From the NCBI GenBank assembly GCA_964608585.1, contig CAZSOL010000001.1:75666-139665 (forward strand): a stretch of 64,000 nucleotides of DNA. The letters are read 5' to 3'. Source of the DNA: an uncultured Candidatus Saccharibacteria bacterium. GTDB taxonomy: Bacteria > Patescibacteriota > Minisyncoccia > Phycocordibacterales > Zambryskibacteraceae. The notes under the pieces are model-generated. The model searched no databases and was not told where the DNA came from. It saw only the letters and a list, made by a program, of their open reading frames with translations. Of the stretch, positions 2,530 through 48,037 are shown one piece after another. Each line of letters starts with the position of its first letter. Position 1 is the first letter of the stretch. The translations under genes were made by a program, and so were the position numbers.

Positions 2530-5500
2530 ATGACTAACAACAACAAGAAAACAATTGATACCAAGGACTTCACCTCGCTTACAATAAAGCTTGCAAGTCC
2601 AGAGCGCATCAAGGAGTGGTCGTTCGGTGAGGTGACCAAGCCGGAGACCATCAACTACAGGACTCAGAGAAGCGAGAGGAACGGACTCTTTGACGAGAAG
2701 ATCTTCGGTCCAGACAAGGACTTTGAGTGTTACTGCGGTAAGTATAGAGGTATTAGATACAAGGGTATTGTATGTGAGAAGTGTGGAGTGGAGATTACTC
2801 GCTCTATAGTTCGTCGTGAGAGGATGGGCCACATTGAGCTCGCTTCTCCGGTTGCGCACATTTGGTTCCTTAAGAACGTACCATCAAGGATCTCTCTTGT
2901 GATGGGTATCCCAGTAGCAGACCTTGAGAAGGTTATCTACTTTGCTGGTTACATTGTTACCTCTGTATCAGAGTCAGAGAAGAATAGGGTCTTGAAGGAT
3001 TTGGACTCTGAGTTCAAGAGTAAGGTTAAGAGCTTGCATGATGACAAGGCTAAGGAGGCTCTAAAGGAGCTCGCTCAGCAAGCTAAGAAGGATATAGAGT
3101 CTCTTGTGCCAGGAAGGGTCTTGGATGAAGTTGAGTACCATCGTTTTGGTATGAAGTACTCAACTATCTTTGAGGCGGGTATTGGTGCAGAAGCAATCTT
3201 TGAAATCCTAAAGTCTTTGGATCTCAAGAAGTTACATGCCGAGATAGAAGAGCAGATAACTAGAGCTCCTGCTACAGAGTTGGTCCGTCTACACAAGAGA
3301 GCTTCTACCGTACAGTGGTTGATTAGCTCAAACATCCGTCCTGAGTGGATGTTCCTTACTCGTATACCGGTTATCCCTCCAGCAATTAGACCAATGGTTC
3401 CACTAGATGGAGGTAGATACGCAACATCTGATGTAAACGACCTATACCGTCGTGTGATAAACAGGAACAACCGCTTGAGGAAACTTAAAGAGATTAATGC
3501 TCCAGATGTGATCCTCCGCAATGAGAAAAGAATTCTTCAGGAGGCAGTAGATGCACTTATAGACAACACTATAAGACATGGAAGCGCTGGTGGAAGTCAG
3601 GCACAGAGGAGACCTCTTAAGAGTTTGTCTGACAACCTCAAGGGTAAACGCGGTCTCTTCCGTCAGAATCTTTTGGGTAAGAGAGTAGACTACTCTGGTC
3701 GCTCAGTTATCGTTGTTGGTCCAGAACTCAAGCTCCATCAGTGTGGACTTCCAAAGCATATGGCCTTGGAACTCTTCAAACCTTTCGTCATTTCAGAGCT
3801 ATTGAAGCGCGAGCTAGCTTACAACATCCCTGGTGCAAGACGTCTTATTGAGGATGCTATACCAGAGGTATGGGCAATCTTAGAAGAGATTATTAAGAAC
3901 AAGTATGTGCTCCTAAACCGCGCACCTACACTACACCGCTTGGGTATACAAGCCTTCCAGCCAATCTTGATTGAGGGTAATGCGATACAACTTCACCCTC
4001 TAGTATGTACAGCCTTCAACGCGGACTTCGATGGAGACCAGATGGCTGTACACGTGCCACTCTCGGACGAGGCTCAAGCTGAGGCTAGACTCATTATGGC
4101 AGCGGACAAAAACATCCTAAAGCCGGGTAACGGTGAGCCTGTTGTCACCAACAAGATGCTAGACATCGTCCTTGGTACTTACTGGATGACTCGCATTATT
4201 GCAGGAGAAAAGGGAGAGAACTCCTTCCACTCAAGTCCAAACGCATCTATTACAGCATACGACTTCGGAGCTGTGGCTATGAGAGCCAAGATAAAGGTCT
4301 TGGCAACTGACTCAGAGAAGTACAAGCATCTTGACGGTAAGATCTTTGAGACATCTGTCGGTAGGCTACTGTTCAACTCTGTGCTTCCTTCGGACTACCC
4401 ATACATCAACCATGAGATGGATAAGAAGAAGATGGGAGAGTTGGTAGACGACCTTATTGAGAAGTATGGCATTGAGAACTTGCCTGCAATCGCTGACAAG
4501 ATCAAGAGCTTCGGCTTCAAGTATGCAACTCAGTCTGGAGTTACATGGGGGTTAGACGACGTTAAGATCCCTGAGGAAAAGTCTAAACTTGTAGAGAAGG
4601 GTAGAAAGGAGGTTGAGAAGGTTATAGAGCAGTGGAACGACGGACTTCTCTCTGAGAACGAGAGGATACAAAAGTCTGTTGAGATCTGGCAGTCCATAAA
4701 GTCTGAGATTGAGGTATTGATCCCAGCTACATTGGATATAAAAGATTCTGTATACGACATGACTTACTCTGGAGCTAGAGGAACCATGGGCAACCTTACT
4801 CAGATGGTGGGTATGAAGGGTATCATTGCTAACGTCTCTGGAGAGTCGCTAGAGTTCCCTATTACATCTTGTTACAAGGAAGGCCTTACTCCACTTGAGT
4901 ACTTCATCACCACTCACGGTTCTAGAAAGGGTCTAACAGACACAGCACTTAACACTGCTAAGGCCGGATATCTTACAAGACGTCTCTTCGATGTGGCACA
5001 AGACGAGATGATTACTGAACATGATTGTGGCACTAAGGAAGGAATCCTTATAACTAGAGAGTCTGCTTCTGGTATTCAGATTCCGATCTCTAAGTCGGTG
5101 AAGGGGCGCTTCTTGGCTCAAGATGTCTCAGATGATAAGGGTAATGTGATCTTCAAAGCGGGCCACTTCTTGACCAAGGCTGATGCTGACTCTCTTGAGA
5201 AGGCTAATGTAGAGGAGGTTGTGGTACGAAGCCCAATGACCTGTAAGTCGGAGCAGGGGCTATGTGTGAAGTGCTATGGTGCCGATCTTGGTAACAACAA
5301 GGTGATAGAACTAGGTGAGGCTGTTGGTACAGTAGCTGCTCAAGCCATTGGTGAGCCAGGTACACAGCTAACAATGAGAACCTTCCACGCTGGAGGAGTG
5401 GCAGCTCAAGGAGGAGACATTACTCAAGGTCTACCAAGAGTTGAAGAAATCTTTGAGAAGAGGAAGCCTAAGAGCCAGGCTCTCATCGCCCATGTTGATG

Positions 5501-9021: not shown

Positions 9022-9399
9022 CTATGCTTGACGCATCAGCTTGACGCTTGGGAGTGTGTTCTCCTCCCGAGGGATGAGACACTTGGCGAGCTCATCGCGG
9101 ATGATTCGCCGCACCTCGTTCTCGAGACCAGCTCTGATGAGGGGTCCGAGAGCTTCAGCGAGTTCGGGCCACACCTTCTCGTCCATGAGCCCAACCTCGA
9201 ACCCCCATTCTTGGAGATCGATCAGGCACTTCTGGATCTGGCCGAGAAGATGCATGATCAGGCCGTGTTTGCCGTTCCCCCTGCAGGTGAGACACTGGAT
9301 CTCCCACGTCATTGCTCTGAGTAGGTTTCGACCCGCCTCCTCACGCATCTGGGGGGTGGCGTTGAAGAACGGATTGTCCTTCGGCAGTCTGTCGCTCAT
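9022..9399 (-). CDS. Hypothetical 125-aa protein with one CxxCxGxG motif (CLTCRGNGKH); locally GC-rich cassette gene
   Basis: ATG at 9399 preceded by GAGGAG; upstream minus-strand TTGACA-18 nt-TATAAT promoter; about 62% GC in a 60-nt sample versus about 42% in adjacent rpoD; flanked by 45-bp direct repeats. Confidence 0.6.
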   Translation of the reverse strand: MSDRLPKDNPFFNATPQMREEAGRNLLRAMTWEIQCLTCRGNGKHGLIMHLLGQIQKCLIDLQEWGFEVGLMDEKVWPELAEALGPLIRAGLENEVRRIIRDELAKCLIPREENTLPSVKLMRQA

Positions 9400-13888: not shown

Positions 13889-14059
13889 GTGAGTACAGAG
13901 TCAGGTAGTGACATCGGTCGTGGTAGTGGGAAACCAGACTGGGTATTTGTTTTGCTGGGTTGTGCTGTACTTCTGGCTGCGGTGCTCGTGATTGGTGTTG
14001 TCGGTCCGCATCTCTTCAAGGTTGAGAGGGTGATACCTCCAGTTCGGACTCCGAGGTAA
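13889..14059 (+). CDS. Candidate small hydrophobic peptide (56 aa, GTG start), not in the ORF track
   Basis: GAGAGG SD 5 nt upstream of GTG; in-frame TGA just upstream; TM-like WVFVLLGCAVLLAAVLVIGVVG; GC-richer than flanks; intrinsic terminator follows. Confidence 0.4.
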   Translation: MSTESGSDIGRGSGKPDWVFVLLGCAVLLAAVLVIGVVGPHLFKVERVIPPVRTPR

Positions 14060-36730: not shown

Positions 36731-36982
36731 TCAACACGGCTTGTGGTCGTTGATGAAGATGCTTCCTGGTTCAAAGCCGTCCATGAGAGGACGAAATTCT
36801 GGATCCGCCTTCTCTTGAGTTGGCGGAGCTGGCATCAAGGCCTGCTCGACAGACTTGAGTGGGTTCTGCCTACCAATGTTCTCAGCAAGCCCACTCGGCC
36901 CTTCAGCGATCTGGATGATCTCATCCACTTGCTGGTCGAGATCATTGGAGATCTCCTCATCAGACAAGAATCTCTGGCGCAT
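36731..36982 (-). CDS. Hypothetical acidic 83-aa protein in the uvrA-uvrC spacer; locally GC-rich
   Basis: Perfect SD AAAGGAGGAAAT before the ATG at 36982; the upstream sequence gaccccgcaca resembles a half of the 8981/9494 hairpin; about 58% GC in a 60-nt sample. Confidence 0.45.
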   Translation of the reverse strand: MRQRFLSDEEISNDLDQQVDEIIQIAEGPSGLAENIGRQNPLKSVEQALMPAPPTQEKADPEFRPLMDGFEPGSIFINDHKPC

Positions 36983-38213: not shown

Positions 38214-38225
38214 ATCAACAAAACT

Positions 38226-38612
38226 ATGAAAAGAATCATTATCTCTGGCTTTATTTTGGTGGTGATAGCTGTCATTATCGCCAATGTATACTCCGACTCC
38301 TCTACGCTCACTCCAGCTTCTCTTGGCCCTATTACTAAAGTTGTTGTAGACGGGGAGGAGAAAAATGCTATATCAATAAACCTAAACGATGCTGACCGCG
38401 TTTATATGGGCACTCGTTGTCCAGGAAATCTGAGTCAACAAGACAATAGCTCTTACATAACAAGAGAGATGGCCCCAGAAGGATATGGAGTTATCTTCCA
38501 TTACGATAACGTAGGAGAGTGCATCTACAAACTTAGATCAGTTGACCAGTTCGGAAAGGATATCCCAACAGAGCACGGAGATCTCTACTACGGTTCGTTC
38601 ATTCTTGAATAA
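38226..38612 (+). CDS. Signal-anchored hypothetical protein (128 aa)
   Basis: N-terminal TM IIISGFILVVIAVIIANV; two Cys pairs; no known domain. Confidence 0.4.
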   Translation: MKRIIISGFILVVIAVIIANVYSDSSTLTPASLGPITKVVVDGEEKNAISINLNDADRVYMGTRCPGNLSQQDNSSYITREMAPEGYGVIFHYDNVGECIYKLRSVDQFGKDIPTEHGDLYYGSFILE

Positions 38613-38661
38613 AGAACTGGTTAAATGTAGGACTTTTACGAAGTGAGGTATAATTTCTAAT

Positions 38662-42081: not shown

Positions 42082-42606
42082 ATGTATATCAATGACCGCA
42101 AAAAGGATTTCACTCTCATATACGAGGCAGAGCACGATGCGGTCTTTAGGTTTTGCTTCTTTAGAGTCTCTGATAGAGAGAAGGCGCTTGATCTTACCCA
42201 AGAGTCATTCGTCAAACTCTGGAAGCATATGCTTGAGAATACTAAGGTCGATAATCCCAAAGCCTTTCTCTTTGTTGTGGCAAGACATCTCATTATTGAC
42301 TGGTATAGAAAGAAGAAGACTCTCTCACTTGATTTCTACAACTCAAATGAGCTTGGCAAAGGGTTTGATGTCGCAGATGAGAGTGGCGCAAGTGAGATTG
42401 AGACAAGTTCGGATGCTAAGCGCGTCACCTCTATGATAAGCAAACTTCCTCCACAATACAGAGATGCTGTGTATCTAAGGTTTGTGGAAGACTTACCACC
42501 TAGAGACATTGCCCAGATACTCAAGCTTAGTACTGGAGTGGTCTCTGTGCGTATTACCAGAGGGATACAGGAGCTTAGGCGTATGCTTGGTATAAATAAT
42601 AGATAA
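42082..42606 (+). CDS. ECF (sigma-24 type) RNA polymerase sigma factor
   Basis: Region 2 FVKLWKHM...ARHLIIDWYRKK; region 4 DAVYLRFVEDLPPRDIAQILKLSTGVVSVRITRGIQELRRML. Confidence 0.8.
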   Translation: MYINDRKKDFTLIYEAEHDAVFRFCFFRVSDREKALDLTQESFVKLWKHMLENTKVDNPKAFLFVVARHLIIDWYRKKKTLSLDFYNSNELGKGFDVADESGASEIETSSDAKRVTSMISKLPPQYRDAVYLRFVEDLPPRDIAQILKLSTGVVSVRITRGIQELRRMLGINNR

Positions 42607-42608
42607 AT

Positions 42609-43331
42609 ATGAAAGAAGAAGACTTAAAGAAGGCTCTAAACGAGCTCAAGGAAGTGAGGATGACCAATCTTGAGACAGAGGCGATGCTCGAGCAGGTCTT
42701 CCGTGCACCCATACCATCACCGTATTTCAAGCGCAATAAAGTCTTTGCTCTTGTGATGGTCTTGGTCCTTGTCTTCTCCACAGGTGGTGTGACCTACGCT
42801 TCAAACGATGCTCTCCCTGGAGACATTCTCTATCCGGTGAAGGTCAAGGTTGTTGAGCCTATACTTGATGTGGTTAATGCAAGCCCAGAGAAGAAGGTGG
42901 CATGGAGCGAGGAGAAGGTGACAAGACGTATCGAGGAAGCTGATGCACTAGCAAGGGAAGATAAGTTGGACGACAAGAAGGCAGAGGAGTTGGAGAAGGA
43001 GATAAGGAAGAGCTCTATAGAGTTCGCCAAGGCGGTAGAAGATAGAGATGAAGAGGATGAAGAAGAGAAGGAGAAGAGGAAGGAGGAGTTCAGGAAGAAG
43101 GTAGAGGCCAAAGAGTTTGAGGTAAAGGTGGAGTATATAGAGGAGAAGCAAGAAGGCAAAGCAGAGGAGAAGGAAGAAAAATTTAAGGAAGATATAGAGA
43201 AGCAAGAGAAGAAGGAGGAGCAGAGCGAGAAGGTGAGGAAGATCAAGGACACTGCTATAAACGCTCTAGACAAGGAGGATAGAAAGAAAAACATGAAGGA
43301 AGAGGATCGAGGTCGAAATAAAAACAAATAA
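42609..43331 (+). CDS. Single-pass membrane protein adjacent to the ECF sigma gene, putative anti-sigma factor (DUF5667-like ectodomain), with a low-complexity E/K-rich C-terminal tail
   Basis: TM helix ALVMVLVLVFSTGGV; GDILYPVKVKV segment; position after the ECF sigma gene. Confidence 0.45.
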   Translation: MKEEDLKKALNELKEVRMTNLETEAMLEQVFRAPIPSPYFKRNKVFALVMVLVLVFSTGGVTYASNDALPGDILYPVKVKVVEPILDVVNASPEKKVAWSEEKVTRRIEEADALAREDKLDDKKAEELEKEIRKSSIEFAKAVEDRDEEDEEEKEKRKEEFRKKVEAKEFEVKVEYIEEKQEGKAEEKEEKFKEDIEKQEKKEEQSEKVRKIKDTAINALDKEDRKKNMKEEDRGRNKNK

Positions 43332-43337
43332 CAAAAA

Positions 43338-43368
43338 ACCGCAATCTTCGTGATTGCGGTTTAAATTC
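43338..43368 (-). terminator. Intrinsic terminator aaccgcaatc-ttcgt-gattgcggtt; the T6 run lies on the minus strand
   Basis: Terminates the minus-strand 53-aa ORF and also abuts the 42609..43331 stop. Confidence 0.65.
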
Positions 43369-43522
43369 TGGCTTCTGCCCGATGCTTAGCTCTCAAGGTC
43401 TCAAGCACTCTCTGCTTCTCCTTGAATTCAGGCGAGTCTGGACCGTGGGTAGTCTTTGCTTCCAGAGCCTCTCTTAAGGCACGGGCCTCAGCTACAAGAA
43501 TGTTATCTCCTTCATAAGACAT
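43361..43522 (-). CDS. Candidate 53-aa protein (MSYEGDNILVAEARALREALEAKTTHGPDSPEFKEKQRVLETLRAKHRAEARI), not in the ORF track
   Basis: AAGGAG SD 5 nt upstream of the ATG; in-frame TAA immediately upstream; intrinsic terminator directly downstream; about 55% GC in a 60-nt sample. Confidence 0.45.
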   Translation of the reverse strand: MSYEGDNILVAEARALREALEAKTTHGPDSPEFKEKQRVLETLRAKHRAEARI

Positions 43523-43583
43523 TTAGTCTCCTTGTGGAAGGATGAATCTTTGGTTACAATACTGACTCAACCAAACCCTGTCA

Positions 43584-44402
43584 ATGAGTAAGCTTTCTGT
43601 CGGTATTGTTGGTCTCCCAAACGTAGGTAAGTCTACGCTCTTCAACGCACTGACCAAGAAGAGTGTGCCAGCAGAGAACTACCCCTTCTGCACCATAGAC
43701 CCCTCTGTGGGTATTGTGCCCGTGCCAGACACTCGTTTGGATAAGCTCGCAGAGATGAGCAAGTCTAAGAAGGTTGTGCCAGCAGTTGTGGAGTTCGTAG
43801 ACATCGCAGGGCTCGTGAAGGGTGCGAGTGAGGGGGCTGGGCTCGGTAACAAGTTCCTCCAGAACATCCGCGAGGTAGACGCTATCATTCAAGTGGTAAG
43901 AATCTTTGAAGATAAGGACATAATCCACGTACACGACAAGGTGGACCCACTCTTTGATATTGAGGTGATAAACATGGAGCTCCAAGCCGGAGGTATCAAC
44001 AAACCCACACTCTACGTGGTCAATACTTCTGAGATAGCGGAGAACAAGCGCGATGTGCTTGATAAGATCCTAGGGCCATACATAGAGATAGATGCAGTCT
44101 TCGGCAAGGGCTTGGACAACCTTATCAAGGCAAGCTATGACCTACTGAACCTCATAACCTTCTTCACTACAGGAGAGAAGGAGTCTAGAGCTTGGACCAC
44201 AAGGAGGAATGCCACTGCTCCCGAGGCAGGTAAGTCCATCCATACAGATTTTCAGGAAAAATTTATTCGTGCAGAGGTGGTGGCTTACGACAAGCTTATA
44301 GAAGTAGGCTCCTTCGCCAACGCACGAGCAAAAGGCCTAGTCCGCACAGAAGGCAAGGAGTATATAGTCCAAGACGGCGACGTTATAGAATTTTTGGTAT
44401 AA
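43584..44402 (+). CDS. ychF: Ribosome-binding ATPase YchF/OLA1, minimal form lacking most of the coiled-coil insertion
   Basis: GIVGLPNVGKSTLFNALT, DIAGLVKGASEGAGLGNKFL, C-terminal TGS domain GKEYIVQDGDVIEFL; 272 aa. Confidence 0.85.
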   Translation: MSKLSVGIVGLPNVGKSTLFNALTKKSVPAENYPFCTIDPSVGIVPVPDTRLDKLAEMSKSKKVVPAVVEFVDIAGLVKGASEGAGLGNKFLQNIREVDAIIQVVRIFEDKDIIHVHDKVDPLFDIEVINMELQAGGINKPTLYVVNTSEIAENKRDVLDKILGPYIEIDAVFGKGLDNLIKASYDLLNLITFFTTGEKESRAWTTRRNATAPEAGKSIHTDFQEKFIRAEVVAYDKLIEVGSFANARAKGLVRTEGKEYIVQDGDVIEFLV

Positions 44403-44411
44403 TGTGACCTT

Positions 44412-45344
44412 ATGAACAACAAAATAACCGCAAGGGACTTCTTCTTGCACTTGGGCGCTATTGTGAGCTTCTATGCCAGCGTTATTGCTCTTATCACACT
44501 GCTCTTCGAGGTTATCAACTTCGCATACCCTAAGGTGACAAATGCGTATATGTACGCCTTCCCATCTATCAGTATGCAGGTGGCCATACTCGTCGTCGCT
44601 CTACCCATATTCCTCCTCATATCTAGGTTCTTTGAGAAGGCGTATGCCGTGGATGCATCACTTCGCGAGATGCCACTCAAGAGGTGGCTTAGCTTCATCA
44701 CTATCTTTATTGCTGGTACCATCGTCGCTGGGGACCTCGTCACTGTTATATACATGTTCCTAGACGGACAAGAGCTAACCACAGCCTTCCTACTTAAGGT
44801 GCTTACTCTCCTCATCATCTCCTCCGGAGTCTTCATTTACTACATGAGGGAGATAAAGAACATCATTCTCCCCAAGGAGAGGACTATGTGGAGAGCTCTA
44901 GTACTCATCTTCACCCTTACGTCTATCGTCCTTGGCTTTGTGGTTATCGGCTCACCTCGTGCACAGCGTGAGTACAGATACGACTCACAGAAGGTTTCCG
45001 ATCTACAGAACATTCAGTGGCAGGTTATAAATTACTACCAAATGAAGGGGATTCTTCCGGAGGCACTTACGGACTTGGACGACTCTCTAAAACCAGGGCT
45101 TGTATCCAACGACCCACAAACTGGAGATGCCTACGTGTATAAGAAGACGGGGGCACTAGCCTTCGAGCTCTGTGCCGACTTCAACCGTGAGACAAGACTT
45201 GGTATCCCTATGAGTGAGGGAGACCTCGCAGCTCGAAGCAGTGTCTACTATGGAAGACAAGAAGAGAATTGGGACCACGAAGCTGGTGAGCACTGCTTCT
45301 CTCGTACGATAGACCCACTCTTGTATCCTCAAATTAAGAGGTAA
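44412..45344 (+). CDS. Polytopic membrane protein, hypothetical (DUF5671-like)
   Basis: Four N-terminal TM helices then a soluble C-terminal region; no catalytic motif seen. Confidence 0.45.
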   Translation: MNNKITARDFFLHLGAIVSFYASVIALITLLFEVINFAYPKVTNAYMYAFPSISMQVAILVVALPIFLLISRFFEKAYAVDASLREMPLKRWLSFITIFIAGTIVAGDLVTVIYMFLDGQELTTAFLLKVLTLLIISSGVFIYYMREIKNIILPKERTMWRALVLIFTLTSIVLGFVVIGSPRAQREYRYDSQKVSDLQNIQWQVINYYQMKGILPEALTDLDDSLKPGLVSNDPQTGDAYVYKKTGALAFELCADFNRETRLGIPMSEGDLAARSSVYYGRQEENWDHEAGEHCFSRTIDPLLYPQIKR

Positions 45345-45352
45345 CTTAAGTA

Positions 45353-48037
45353 ATGAAGGAGTACGACCCAAAGGATATAGAAACCAAGTGGCAGGCGGAG
45401 TGGGAGAAGAGTGGAATATACAAAGCCAAAGGAAAGGGGGAGAAGTATTACTCTCTTATTGAGTTCCCGTACCCTTCTGGAGACGGGCTTCATGTAGGTC
45501 ACCCAAGGCCTTATATAGGTATGGATGTTGTCTCTAGGAAGAGGCGTATGGAGGGTTACGACGTGCTTTACCCCATAGGTTGGGACGCCTTTGGTCTTCC
45601 TACGGAGAACTATGCCCTAAAGACTGGCAAAGACCCAAGACAAGTTACTAAAGAGAATTCGGAGAACTTCAAAAGACAGATAAAGTCTCTAGGCATATCT
45701 TTTGACTGGTCTCGTGAGGTGAACACCACTGACCCCAAGTACTACAAGTGGACGCAGTGGCTCTTCCTTAAGTTTTTGGAGGAGGGCTTGGCTTATAAAG
45801 CCAAGATGCCTATCAATTGGTGCCCAAAGGACAAGATTGGTCTTGCTAATGAGGAGGTGGTGGATGGTAAGTGCGAGAGGTGTGGTACAGAGGTAGAGCT
45901 AAGAGAGCGTGAGCAGTGGATGCTCAAGATTACTGCGTACGCAGAGCGACTCCTTAAAGACTTGGACGAGGTAGACTACCCCGAGCGAGTGAAGGCTCAA
46001 CAGAGGAATTGGATAGGCAAGAGCGAGGGCGCGCTTATAAAGTTCGACGATATCGAAGTATTCACAACTCGACCCGACACCATATACGGAGCAACCTTTA
46101 TTGTTGTGTCTGGCAAAGAGGATAGATTTACTGGTAGGTATGTGACGAACCCCGCCACGAAGGAGAAGATTCCCGTCTGGGAAGCAGAGTACGTACTCTC
46201 TGACTATGGCACCGGAGCTATTATGGCTGTACCTGCGCACGATGAGAGAGACTTTGAGTTTGCTAAGAAGCACGATTTGCCTATAAAGGAAGTGGTTATC
46301 GAGAGGATGATAGATAAAAGTAATCCTCACGTAGAAGGAAAGAAAATAATTTTTAGAGACGCAATTATTGCAGCAGTTAGGAATCCTAAGGACGGCAAAT
46401 ACATTTGCTTGAAGTGGAAGAAGCAACCATGGACCACCTTTGTCATGGGAGGTATTGAGGGAGAAGAGGATCCTGTTGTTGCAGCATTGAGGGAAGTCAA
46501 AGAAGAAACTGGATATAAAAATATAAAACATATACAAACTCTAAAGGATGCACAGTCTGAGTTTTTTGCTGCACATAAGGATGTAAATAGGGTAGCTCAC
46601 ACAAGAAACTTAATCTTTGAGCTAATAGACGAAGAGCGCGAGGAAATCTCGAACGAGGAAAAGGATACCCACGAGATAGTCTGGATGTCTGTTGATGAAA
46701 TTTTGGCTACCAAGATGACCCACAGTGAGATGCCGATATTTGTGGATTGGTTTAACGGGACAAGTAACCCCTTTGTAGGTATTGGTGTGTTAATAAATTC
46801 TGGTAAGTTTGATGGCTTAGAGTCGGAAGATGCTAAGAAGAAGATTACTAAGGCGGTTAAAGGCGAGTGGGTTACAAAGTTTAAGCTTAGAGACTGGGTC
46901 TTTAGCCGTCAGAGATATTGGGGAGAGCCTATACCAGTCATCCTTTGTAAGAAGTGCGGGATAGTGCCAGTACCAGAGAGTGACCTACCTGTAGAGCTTC
47001 CAGTTGTGGAGAAGTACGAGCCGACAGAAACAGGCGACTCCCCACTAGCCAAGATTGAGAGTTGGGTCAATGTGAGATGTCCACTTTGTGGTGATAAGGC
47101 CAAGAGAGAGACAGACGTAATGCCCAACTGGGCTGGCTCCTCTTGGTACTTCATGCGCTATACAGACCCAGAGAACGATAAGGAATTCGCTTCCAAGAAG
47201 GCCTTGAAGCACTGGATGCCAGTAGACTGGTATAACGGTGGCATGGAGCACACGACTTTGCACCTCTTGTACTCAAGATTTTGGAACAAGTTCCTCTTTG
47301 ATTTGAAATTAGTGCCTACAAGCGAGCCATACAAGAAGCGCACCTCACATGGACTCATCTTGGCAGAGGGAGGAGAGAAGATGAGTAAGTCCAAAGGCAA
47401 TGTGGTGAACCCAGACGATATTGTAGATCGTTTCGGTGCGGATACCTTACGACTCTACGAGATGTTTATGGGCCCATTTGAGCAGGCTATAGCTTGGAGT
47501 GAGTCTAGTCTTGTCGGACCAAGGCGTTTTATAGAGAGGGTGTGGAAGTTGAGAGGCAAGGTTGGTGAGGTAGAACCAAGCAACTTTCTAATGCACTCCA
47601 CAATCAAGAAGGTATCAGAAGACATAGAGAGCATGGGCTTCAACACAGCCGTATCTGCCATGATGGTTTGGGCTAATGAGTTAGATAAGAGGGAGGTTGT
47701 CTCTAGTGTTGAATATGAGACCTTACTCAAGCTTCTCTCTCCTTTTGCTCCACATGTGACAGAAGAGCTTTGGGCTAACCTTGGTCACAAAGAGTCTATC
47801 CATGAGAGTGAGTGGCCAAAGTGGGAAGAGAAGTATTTGGTCCAAGACGAGGTAACTATAGCTGTACAGATAAACGGGAAGGTGAGAGGGAAACTTGTAG
47901 TTTCTAGGAATACAGAAGAAGCAGAAGTAGAGAAGTTGGCTAAGCAACTACCAAATATTCTTAAGTGGATAGAGGGTAAAGATGTGAAGAAAGTGATAGT
48001 CGTCCCTCAAAAAATAGTAAATATTGTTATCGCTTGA
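45353..48037 (+). CDS. leuS: Leucyl-tRNA synthetase with an embedded Nudix hydrolase domain and a drastically shortened CP1 editing region
   Basis: HVGH (HIGH-type) and KMSKS; LeuRS blocks WCPKDKIGLANEEV, TTRPDT, GTGAIMAVPAHDERDFEFA, RDWVFSRQRYWGEPIP; Nudix box GGIEGEEDPVVAALREVKEETGY at about aa 366-388. Confidence 0.9.
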   Translation: MKEYDPKDIETKWQAEWEKSGIYKAKGKGEKYYSLIEFPYPSGDGLHVGHPRPYIGMDVVSRKRRMEGYDVLYPIGWDAFGLPTENYALKTGKDPRQVTKENSENFKRQIKSLGISFDWSREVNTTDPKYYKWTQWLFLKFLEEGLAYKAKMPINWCPKDKIGLANEEVVDGKCERCGTEVELREREQWMLKITAYAERLLKDLDEVDYPERVKAQQRNWIGKSEGALIKFDDIEVFTTRPDTIYGATFIVVSGKEDRFTGRYVTNPATKEKIPVWEAEYVLSDYGTGAIMAVPAHDERDFEFAKKHDLPIKEVVIERMIDKSNPHVEGKKIIFRDAIIAAVRNPKDGKYICLKWKKQPWTTFVMGGIEGEEDPVVAALREVKEETGYKNIKHIQTLKDAQSEFFAAHKDVNRVAHTRNLIFELIDEEREEISNEEKDTHEIVWMSVDEILATKMTHSEMPIFVDWFNGTSNPFVGIGVLINSGKFDGLESEDAKKKITKAVKGEWVTKFKLRDWVFSRQRYWGEPIPVILCKKCGIVPVPESDLPVELPVVEKYEPTETGDSPLAKIESWVNVRCPLCGDKAKRETDVMPNWAGSSWYFMRYTDPENDKEFASKKALKHWMPVDWYNGGMEHTTLHLLYSRFWNKFLFDLKLVPTSEPYKKRTSHGLILAEGGEKMSKSKGNVVNPDDIVDRFGADTLRLYEMFMGPFEQAIAWSESSLVGPRRFIERVWKLRGKVGEVEPSNFLMHSTIKKVSEDIESMGFNTAVSAMMVWANELDKREVVSSVEYETLLKLLSPFAPHVTEELWANLGHKESIHESEWPKWEEKYLVQDEVTIAVQINGKVRGKLVVSRNTEEAEVEKLAKQLPNILKWIEGKDVKKVIVVPQKIVNIVIA

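Follow-up and report, generated by a model that had tools for sequence, protein, structure and literature searches.

A small, lineage-restricted gene with a predicted helical-hairpin product in a variable intergenic slot of a Patescibacteria genome

Is a short, unannotated reading frame in the gap between a DUF5667 gene and ychF a real protein-coding gene, and is it native to the genome that carries it? The question was raised by an original prediction made on 64,000 nucleotides of a contig from an uncultured Candidatus Saccharibacteria bacterium (the whole stretch is referred to here as the window), and concerns a frame of 53 sense codons (MSYEGDNILVAEARALREALEAKTTHGPDSPEFKEKQRVLETLRAKHRAEARI; 43361..43522, minus strand, stop included), termed ORF53. 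The local gene order runs from a DUF5679 gene through a 76-aa gene, a flavodoxin-like gene and an fn3 protein gene (minus) to an ECF sigma factor gene (42082-42606, plus; Sigma70_r2/r4_2 by Pfam) and a DUF5667 gene for a membrane protein and putative anti-sigma partner (42609-43331, plus; Pfam), followed by ORF53 (minus), ychF, a DUF5671 gene and leuS. The orientation of ORF53 is convergent relative to the sigma/DUF5667 pair and divergent relative to ychF. By its ychF relatives, the window falls within Patescibacteria, close to metagenome-assembled genomes of Paceibacteria/Nomurabacteria type. The identical 53-aa protein was predicted, nameless, by the gene caller on both the 238 kb NCBI contig and a Logan contig; the identical contig is contained in SRR15237806. 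The adjacent YchF (43584-44402) is shortened, with 272 aa (272-277 aa in close relatives) as compared to about 330-370 codons in distant ones.

Signals for separate expression were found at both ends of the frame. ORF53 opens with an ATG at 43522, preceded at 5 nt by the Shine-Dalgarno (SD) sequence AAGGAG (43528..43533), and ends with a TAA at 43363-43361, each as originally predicted. The spacer between AAGGAG and the ATG reads ACTAA, and the in-frame TAA within it makes the start codon unambiguous. A sigma-70 consensus scan placed a promoter-like site, TTGACA-17 nt-TATTGT, at 43556..43584 (minus), a consensus match only, agreeing at 10/12 positions; its -35 box shares one base with the divergently oriented ychF, namely the first of the start codon (43584, plus), and the site implies a leader of ~25 nt. 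The stop codon is overlapped by a hairpin with a perfect 11-bp stem and a 5-nt loop (AAACCGCAATC-ACGAA-GATTGCGGTTT, 43362-43336), which is followed by the T-rich tail TTTGTTATTT and completes an intrinsic terminator at 43326..43362 (minus; -15.4 kcal/mol, z = -5.3 relative to shuffles). The description of a small gene with autonomous signals was thus borne out at this locus by the promoter-like site, the SD and the terminator. An 11-nt inverted repeat (43556-43566 and 43599-43609, 10/11 complementary) was also observed between the window-specific ychF leader and the conserved ychF codons 6-9; it may be a chance occurrence, or it might mask the start region of ychF.

A search for homologues of the protein returned one match. 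When 1.84 billion cluster representatives were searched exhaustively with HMMER, within a protein search space of about 15 billion predicted proteins in all, P0004 (55 aa; E = 1.3e-6) was the sole homologue of the same size, and BLASTP aligned it to ORF53 with 54% identity across 46 residues, ungapped. P0004 is encoded on a 1653-nt contig (L082), convergent with genes for a 231-aa DUF5667-type protein (49% identical to that of the window) and a 174-aa ECF sigma factor (58%). Given this shared synteny and an identity of 54% as compared to 58% and 49%, the two small proteins are conserved as well as their bona fide neighbors, at a level of divergence where neutral DNA cannot be aligned. Nucleotide identity between them by codon position is 70/67/20%. 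Across the 46 codons compared, 4 are identical, 21 differ synonymously and 21 change the amino acid, with no indels; 21/25 of the conserved residues are written with different codons. Other frames of the alignment reach 11-17% identity, save one reverse frame at 42%. P0004 also carries an SD (GGAGG, 8 nt upstream of its ATG) and, right past its stop, a hairpin with a T-run (-16.8 kcal/mol, z = -6.75) whose sequence is unrelated to that of the ORF53 terminator. As judged from these alignments, ORF53 was shown to encode a protein that two lineages have kept under purifying selection, and the signals for its translation and termination are conserved in kind. The family has two members, and the evidence for selection is therefore a single pairwise comparison.

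Other searches traced the same narrow distribution. A word-indexed protein search of 5.8 billion clusters returned nothing but ORF53 itself, and one with the two-sequence profile returned the two known members only. No match to ORF53 was obtained with tblastn among 80 ychF loci of GTDB representative genomes; in the nearest of these (L001 and L002), other genes lie directly upstream of ychF. A metagenome scan with the small-protein alignment recovered L082 again, and a further candidate (L096) was rejected as a chance match, being a high-GC membrane protein with only HGPDSPEF in common. A metagenome scan with the DUF5667 alignment, which yields poor search patterns, gave no matches.

The gap that holds ORF53 varies among relatives. 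In blastn comparisons, two close relatives (L097 and L098) are collinear with the window at ~86% identity up to 43280 and again from 43590; the intervening 43281..43589 includes the end of the DUF5667 gene, whose 3' tail has diverged, together with ychF codons 1 and 2, and is without counterpart in these relatives, which have 113 nt in its place, with an intergenic distance of 35 nt between the DUF5667 gene and ychF. Four relatives have AAGCTATTCTTG as a conserved motif ahead of ychF; this motif is missing in the window, where codon 2 of ychF is AGT as compared to TCC or TCT in relatives, indicating that the window-unique segment extends into both flanking genes. In a survey of syntenic contigs reached via DUF5667 protein homologues, the slot was 35 nt long and without a gene in L083/L097 and L084/L098, whose DUF5667 proteins are 85-87% identical to that of the window. 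In L086 (DUF5667 77%) it holds a 121-aa gene (1727-2092, minus; 58.7% GC) with a signal sequence and its own hairpin terminator, and in L087 (about 52%) 227 nt with nothing called; an uncalled minus-strand ORF with GGAGG in those 227 nt is speculative and not homologous to ORF53. A 168-aa gene (4818-5324, plus; 50.7% GC) occupies the slot in L089 and a 209-aa gene (L094 4386-5015, plus; 60.5% GC) that in L093/L094, the DUF5667 identities of these contigs spanning 43-53%; the two genes are homologous, with GC3 up to 79%. An apparent difference in slot content between L093 and L094 proved to be a gene-calling artefact, the DNA being identical. Several genes were found in L091 (about 46%), one of which (2884-3816, minus; 310 aa) matches the phage family phrog_20769. 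None of the slot cargo in L086, L089, L094 and L091 has a known function. ORF53 is a rare, dispensable, lineage-restricted accessory gene in a variable intergenic slot, as its three closest relatives (~86% nucleotide identity) are without it and other lineages have unrelated genes at this position.

Composition was examined with respect to the view that ORF53 is GC-richer than its neighbors, at about 55%, and compositionally foreign; neither point held. The GC content of ORF53 is 48.8%, as compared to 46.0% for the window, 49.0% for ychF and 45.9% for the DUF5667 gene, which lies within 0.6 sd of the window mean and is equaled or exceeded by 28% of all 162-nt windows; inside ORF53, 55-60% GC is reached by one 60-nt stretch only. 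By codon position, GC is 59/43/44%, relative to a mean of 51/35/51% for 48 long ORFs. Under a codon model trained on the window's long ORFs, the annotated frame scores 0.337 bits per codon, the best of the six frames and the 47th percentile among equal-length chunks of host genes. With both GC and codon usage resembling those of the host, ORF53 is compositionally native.

ORF53 had also been grouped with three other small frames as a class of compositionally foreign micro-genes sprinkled into intergenic gaps, and comparison of codon usage among the four gave a heterogeneous picture. The minus-strand frame at 9022-9399 (125 aa) is truly GC-rich (GC 58%; GC3 74% as compared to a host mean of 51%) and has a GAGGAG SD, a TAGTATAAT box and a GC-rich hairpin past its stop, with a 172-aa shadow ORF on the opposite strand; it gave no family match and forms a singleton cluster. 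Flanked by uvrA and uvrC, the frame at 36731-36982 (minus) is preceded by a strong AAAGGAGG SD and followed by a terminator. The corresponding gene of L097 (4377-4625, minus; 82 aa) shares only the last 14 residues (FEPGSIFINDHKPC), the rest being unalignable, while the flanks are 83-86% identical in nucleotide sequence; the protein thus appears to combine a hypervariable body with a fixed C-terminal motif. The frame at 13889-14059 (plus) has a coding score near zero and no SD, and ORF53 itself is host-like. The idea of micro-genes scattered over gaps draws partial support from gene presence and absence at slots in relatives, and none from the composition of ORF53. An SD was found at few long ORFs of the window (a 4-mer core in 8/47, a 5-mer in 1/47), and a TATAAT-like box lies within about 15 nt of the ATG in many of the 47, which suggests that leaderless or SD-independent initiation may be widespread in the window. 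Conserved small genes also carry SDs. A literature search on DUF5667 and on SD usage in Patescibacteria yielded nothing usable.

Collinear relatives differ in blastn comparison at four slots, namely DUF5667|ychF, uvrC|ddl, DUF5671|leuS and yceG|mnmA. At uvrC|ddl, 447 nt of the window (38214-38660) are absent from L097, where uvrC and ddl stand 7 nt apart; on this alignment, 38214-38660 is a second strain-specific slot. It contains a 128-aa ORF (38226-38612, plus) with an N-terminal signal/membrane segment and no family match. The DUF5671|leuS junction (45344-45352) is another variable slot, empty in the window; it holds a GNAT-like 166-aa gene and a 129-aa gene in L098 (4304-5288), and a nucleoside deoxyribosyltransferase-like 167-aa gene in L002 (7801-8304) and L093 (7449-7952). 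LeuS itself (45353-48037; 894 aa) contains a NUDIX domain (PF00293; region 46233-46877) inside the synthetase, whereas LeuS of L098 has 718 aa, and blastn breaks in leuS at this domain (644 nt in the window, 104 nt in L098). From these alignments, NUDIX in this leucyl-tRNA synthetase is taken as a lineage-specific insertion.

The product of ORF53 had been described as helical and charged with no recognized motif, and this description agrees with the present results. AlphaFold2, given the single sequence, predicted two antiparallel helices (residues 8-26 and 31-52; mean pLDDT 87), and the loop that joins them is conserved between ORF53 and P0004 as H-G-P-[DE]-S-x-E-F. No signal peptide or membrane segment was read from the ORF53 sequence. 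The best Pfam match to ORF53 was DUF1411 (E = 0.15; 12 bits, relative to a cut-off of 22), and no match was obtained in NCBIfam for ORF53, in Pfam for P0004, or in PADLOC and PHROGs for either protein. A PDB sequence search with ORF53 returned designed bundles and coronin coiled coils only, through helix-capping motifs, and structural fold matches were non-specific. The predicted fold is accordingly described as a generic two-helix hairpin that matches no known family.

Several explanations other than a native small protein gene were weighed against these observations. The first is a non-coding element, either a small RNA or a terminator/divergent-promoter region with a chance ORF. In its favor, 5.6% of simulated 252-nt gaps of the same composition contain an ATG-initiated frame of 53 codons or more; the full transcript also folds somewhat better than shuffles (z = -2.8), mostly owing to the terminator. 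Yet only 0.27% of the same simulated gaps have such an ORF with a 5-mer SD, correctly spaced SDs precede both ORF53 and P0004, and between the two lineages the frame is kept without gap or frameshift, with third codon positions saturated and amino acids retained. No sign of an RNA element was seen: across the window, Rfam 15 recovered three tRNAs only, and the best scores local to ORF53 (22 and 20 bits) are well below the gathering scores (49 and 47). A non-coding origin is therefore very improbable. Recent horizontal transfer into the gap of a compositionally foreign cassette comprising promoter, SD, ORF and terminator, in keeping with the original prediction, is unlikely as well, though better placed. 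It would account for the absence of the gene from the three closest relatives, the replacement of the ancestral ychF upstream motif and even of ychF codon 2, a strong SD that is unusual in this genome, and the GC-rich slot cargo elsewhere (58.7% in L086 and 60.5% in L093/L094, relative to ~47% for those loci). Against it stand the host-like GC and codon usage of ORF53, flanks in which no direct or inverted repeats were found, a hairpin that is single-copy in the window, and viral, phage and plasmid collections in which no relatives were found; by repeats, copies and mobile-element homologues, no integron cassette, MITE or IS was recognizable at ORF53. The sole homologue, moreover, occurs at the same position in a sister lineage and is as divergent as its neighbors, which fits vertical inheritance followed by loss. 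In a neighbor-joining tree of the sigma factor and DUF5667 core, L082 is sister to the clade of the window, L097, L098 and L086, and the distribution of ORF53 is explained about equally well by one gain with two losses or replacements and by two independent gains. A divergence equal to that of the neighbors and native codon usage favor a long-resident gene that the nearest relatives lost, and the derived ychF leader of the window favors recombinational replacement. More speculatively, certain gaps between genes may act in these Paceibacteria genomes as fixed "micro-slots", into which self-contained units of one gene are inserted again and again. Each unit would bring a promoter, a strong SD and a terminator, and many would be GC-richer than the host and oriented against the core genes. 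On this view, ORF53 and P0004 would represent one type of cargo, which may have been directed downstream of the sigma/DUF5667 operon by an undescribed site-specific process and not simply inherited. We consider this improbable; if true, the proposed micro-genes would amount, as a class, to a genuine form of mobility in reduced CPR genomes.

Our preferred reading, to which we assign a probability of roughly 0.8, is that ORF53 is a functional, separately transcribed accessory gene for a small protein, with a helical-hairpin product that is probably a small modulator. Transcription would start from the sigma-70-like promoter, back to back with the ychF start, with the strong SD in a leader of ~25 nt. 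The transcript would stop at the intrinsic terminator directly past the stop codon, which may also insulate the convergent ECF sigma/DUF5667 operon. The product would be a cytoplasmic, signal-less, charged 53-aa antiparallel two-helix hairpin, neither an enzyme nor a nucleic-acid-encoded signal. Stoichiometric action as a small modulator, through pairing with itself or docking on a larger partner, is most likely, because the hydrophobic face of each helix is no more than a narrow stripe. No partner ORF of a type II toxin-antitoxin pair was found in the 252-nt gap, and in the window ORF53 forms a monocistronic unit; on L082, the last 47 codons, all that is visible, of an unrelated gene end 15 nt upstream of P0004. 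The sole candidate partner to which the data point, and that doubtfully, is the adjacent ECF sigma/DUF5667 module, since ORF53 and P0004 both adjoin it. A dedicated regulator of this system, such as an anti-anti-sigma-like small protein, is a tentative alternative with a low likelihood of its own. Both copies lie immediately downstream of the DUF5667 gene despite ~45% sequence divergence, and the ORF53 protein is predicted to be cytoplasmic and helical, properties common among small proteins that bind sigma or anti-sigma factors. On the other hand, ORF53 is not co-transcribed with the operon, given its convergent orientation and a promoter and terminator of its own, and in 7/9 lineages examined (L083, L084, L086, L087, L089, L091 and L093) the sigma/DUF5667 pair is present but the small gene is absent, with unrelated genes in the slot in other lineages. 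Neither an anti-sigma (zf-HC2, RskA and similar) nor a STAS domain was found in ORF53 with Pfam and NCBIfam. The link to the sigma factor is weak owing to the convergent orientation, the seven lineages that have no such gene, and a position that may be inherited synteny; if the position was vertically inherited, then adjacency says little about function.

ORF53 and P0004 constitute a new two-member family of small helical-hairpin proteins, and the gene is a lineage-specific accessory gene of an ordinary kind. It adds one verified small protein to the large pool of unverified short ORFs of uncultivated Patescibacteria and leaves current views unaltered by itself. One remote homologue in conserved synteny can be enough to verify a short ORF of this kind. 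Reduced CPR genomes that are otherwise collinear vary at a few very small slots between genes, and the small genes in these slots are natural candidates for strain-specific host-interaction or regulatory functions.

Three known systems offer comparisons. The repeat unit GDIAEARALYDAIAGLAAAHPDEPALREEQAKGAVNL of TPR/PPR-like repeats in STAND NTPases (P0003, P0005 and P0002) resembles ORF53 residues 5-43, including an H-P/G-D-x-P turn, but ORF53 is a single free-standing unit, unlike these repeat proteins. HMMER matches to P0003 and P0005 have E-values summed over 8-10 units, each weak alone, and TPR/PPR profiles gave no match to ORF53, which has one hairpin and no tandem array of 34-35-residue helical hairpins; the likeness is probably convergent helix-turn-helix composition. 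Small helical proteins of similar architecture include Rop (63 aa), which dimerizes to a four-helix bundle, and the kinase inhibitor Sda (46 aa). ORF53 shares nothing in sequence with solved structures except generic helix-capping motifs; it resembles these two in its size, its lack of a signal peptide, the antiparallel helix-loop-helix predicted by AlphaFold2 and a monocistronic gene with its own signals. At the level of the genome, the closest parallel is with flexible genomic islets, variable slots between core genes that are turned over by homologous recombination in their flanks. The ORF53 slot differs from these in being very small, with one 53-aa gene and no integrase, tRNA or repeat to mark it. 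As in flexible islets, collinear genomes of ~86% identity are broken by short differences in gene content at fixed positions, and the breakpoints of the slot fall within conserved flanking coding sequence.
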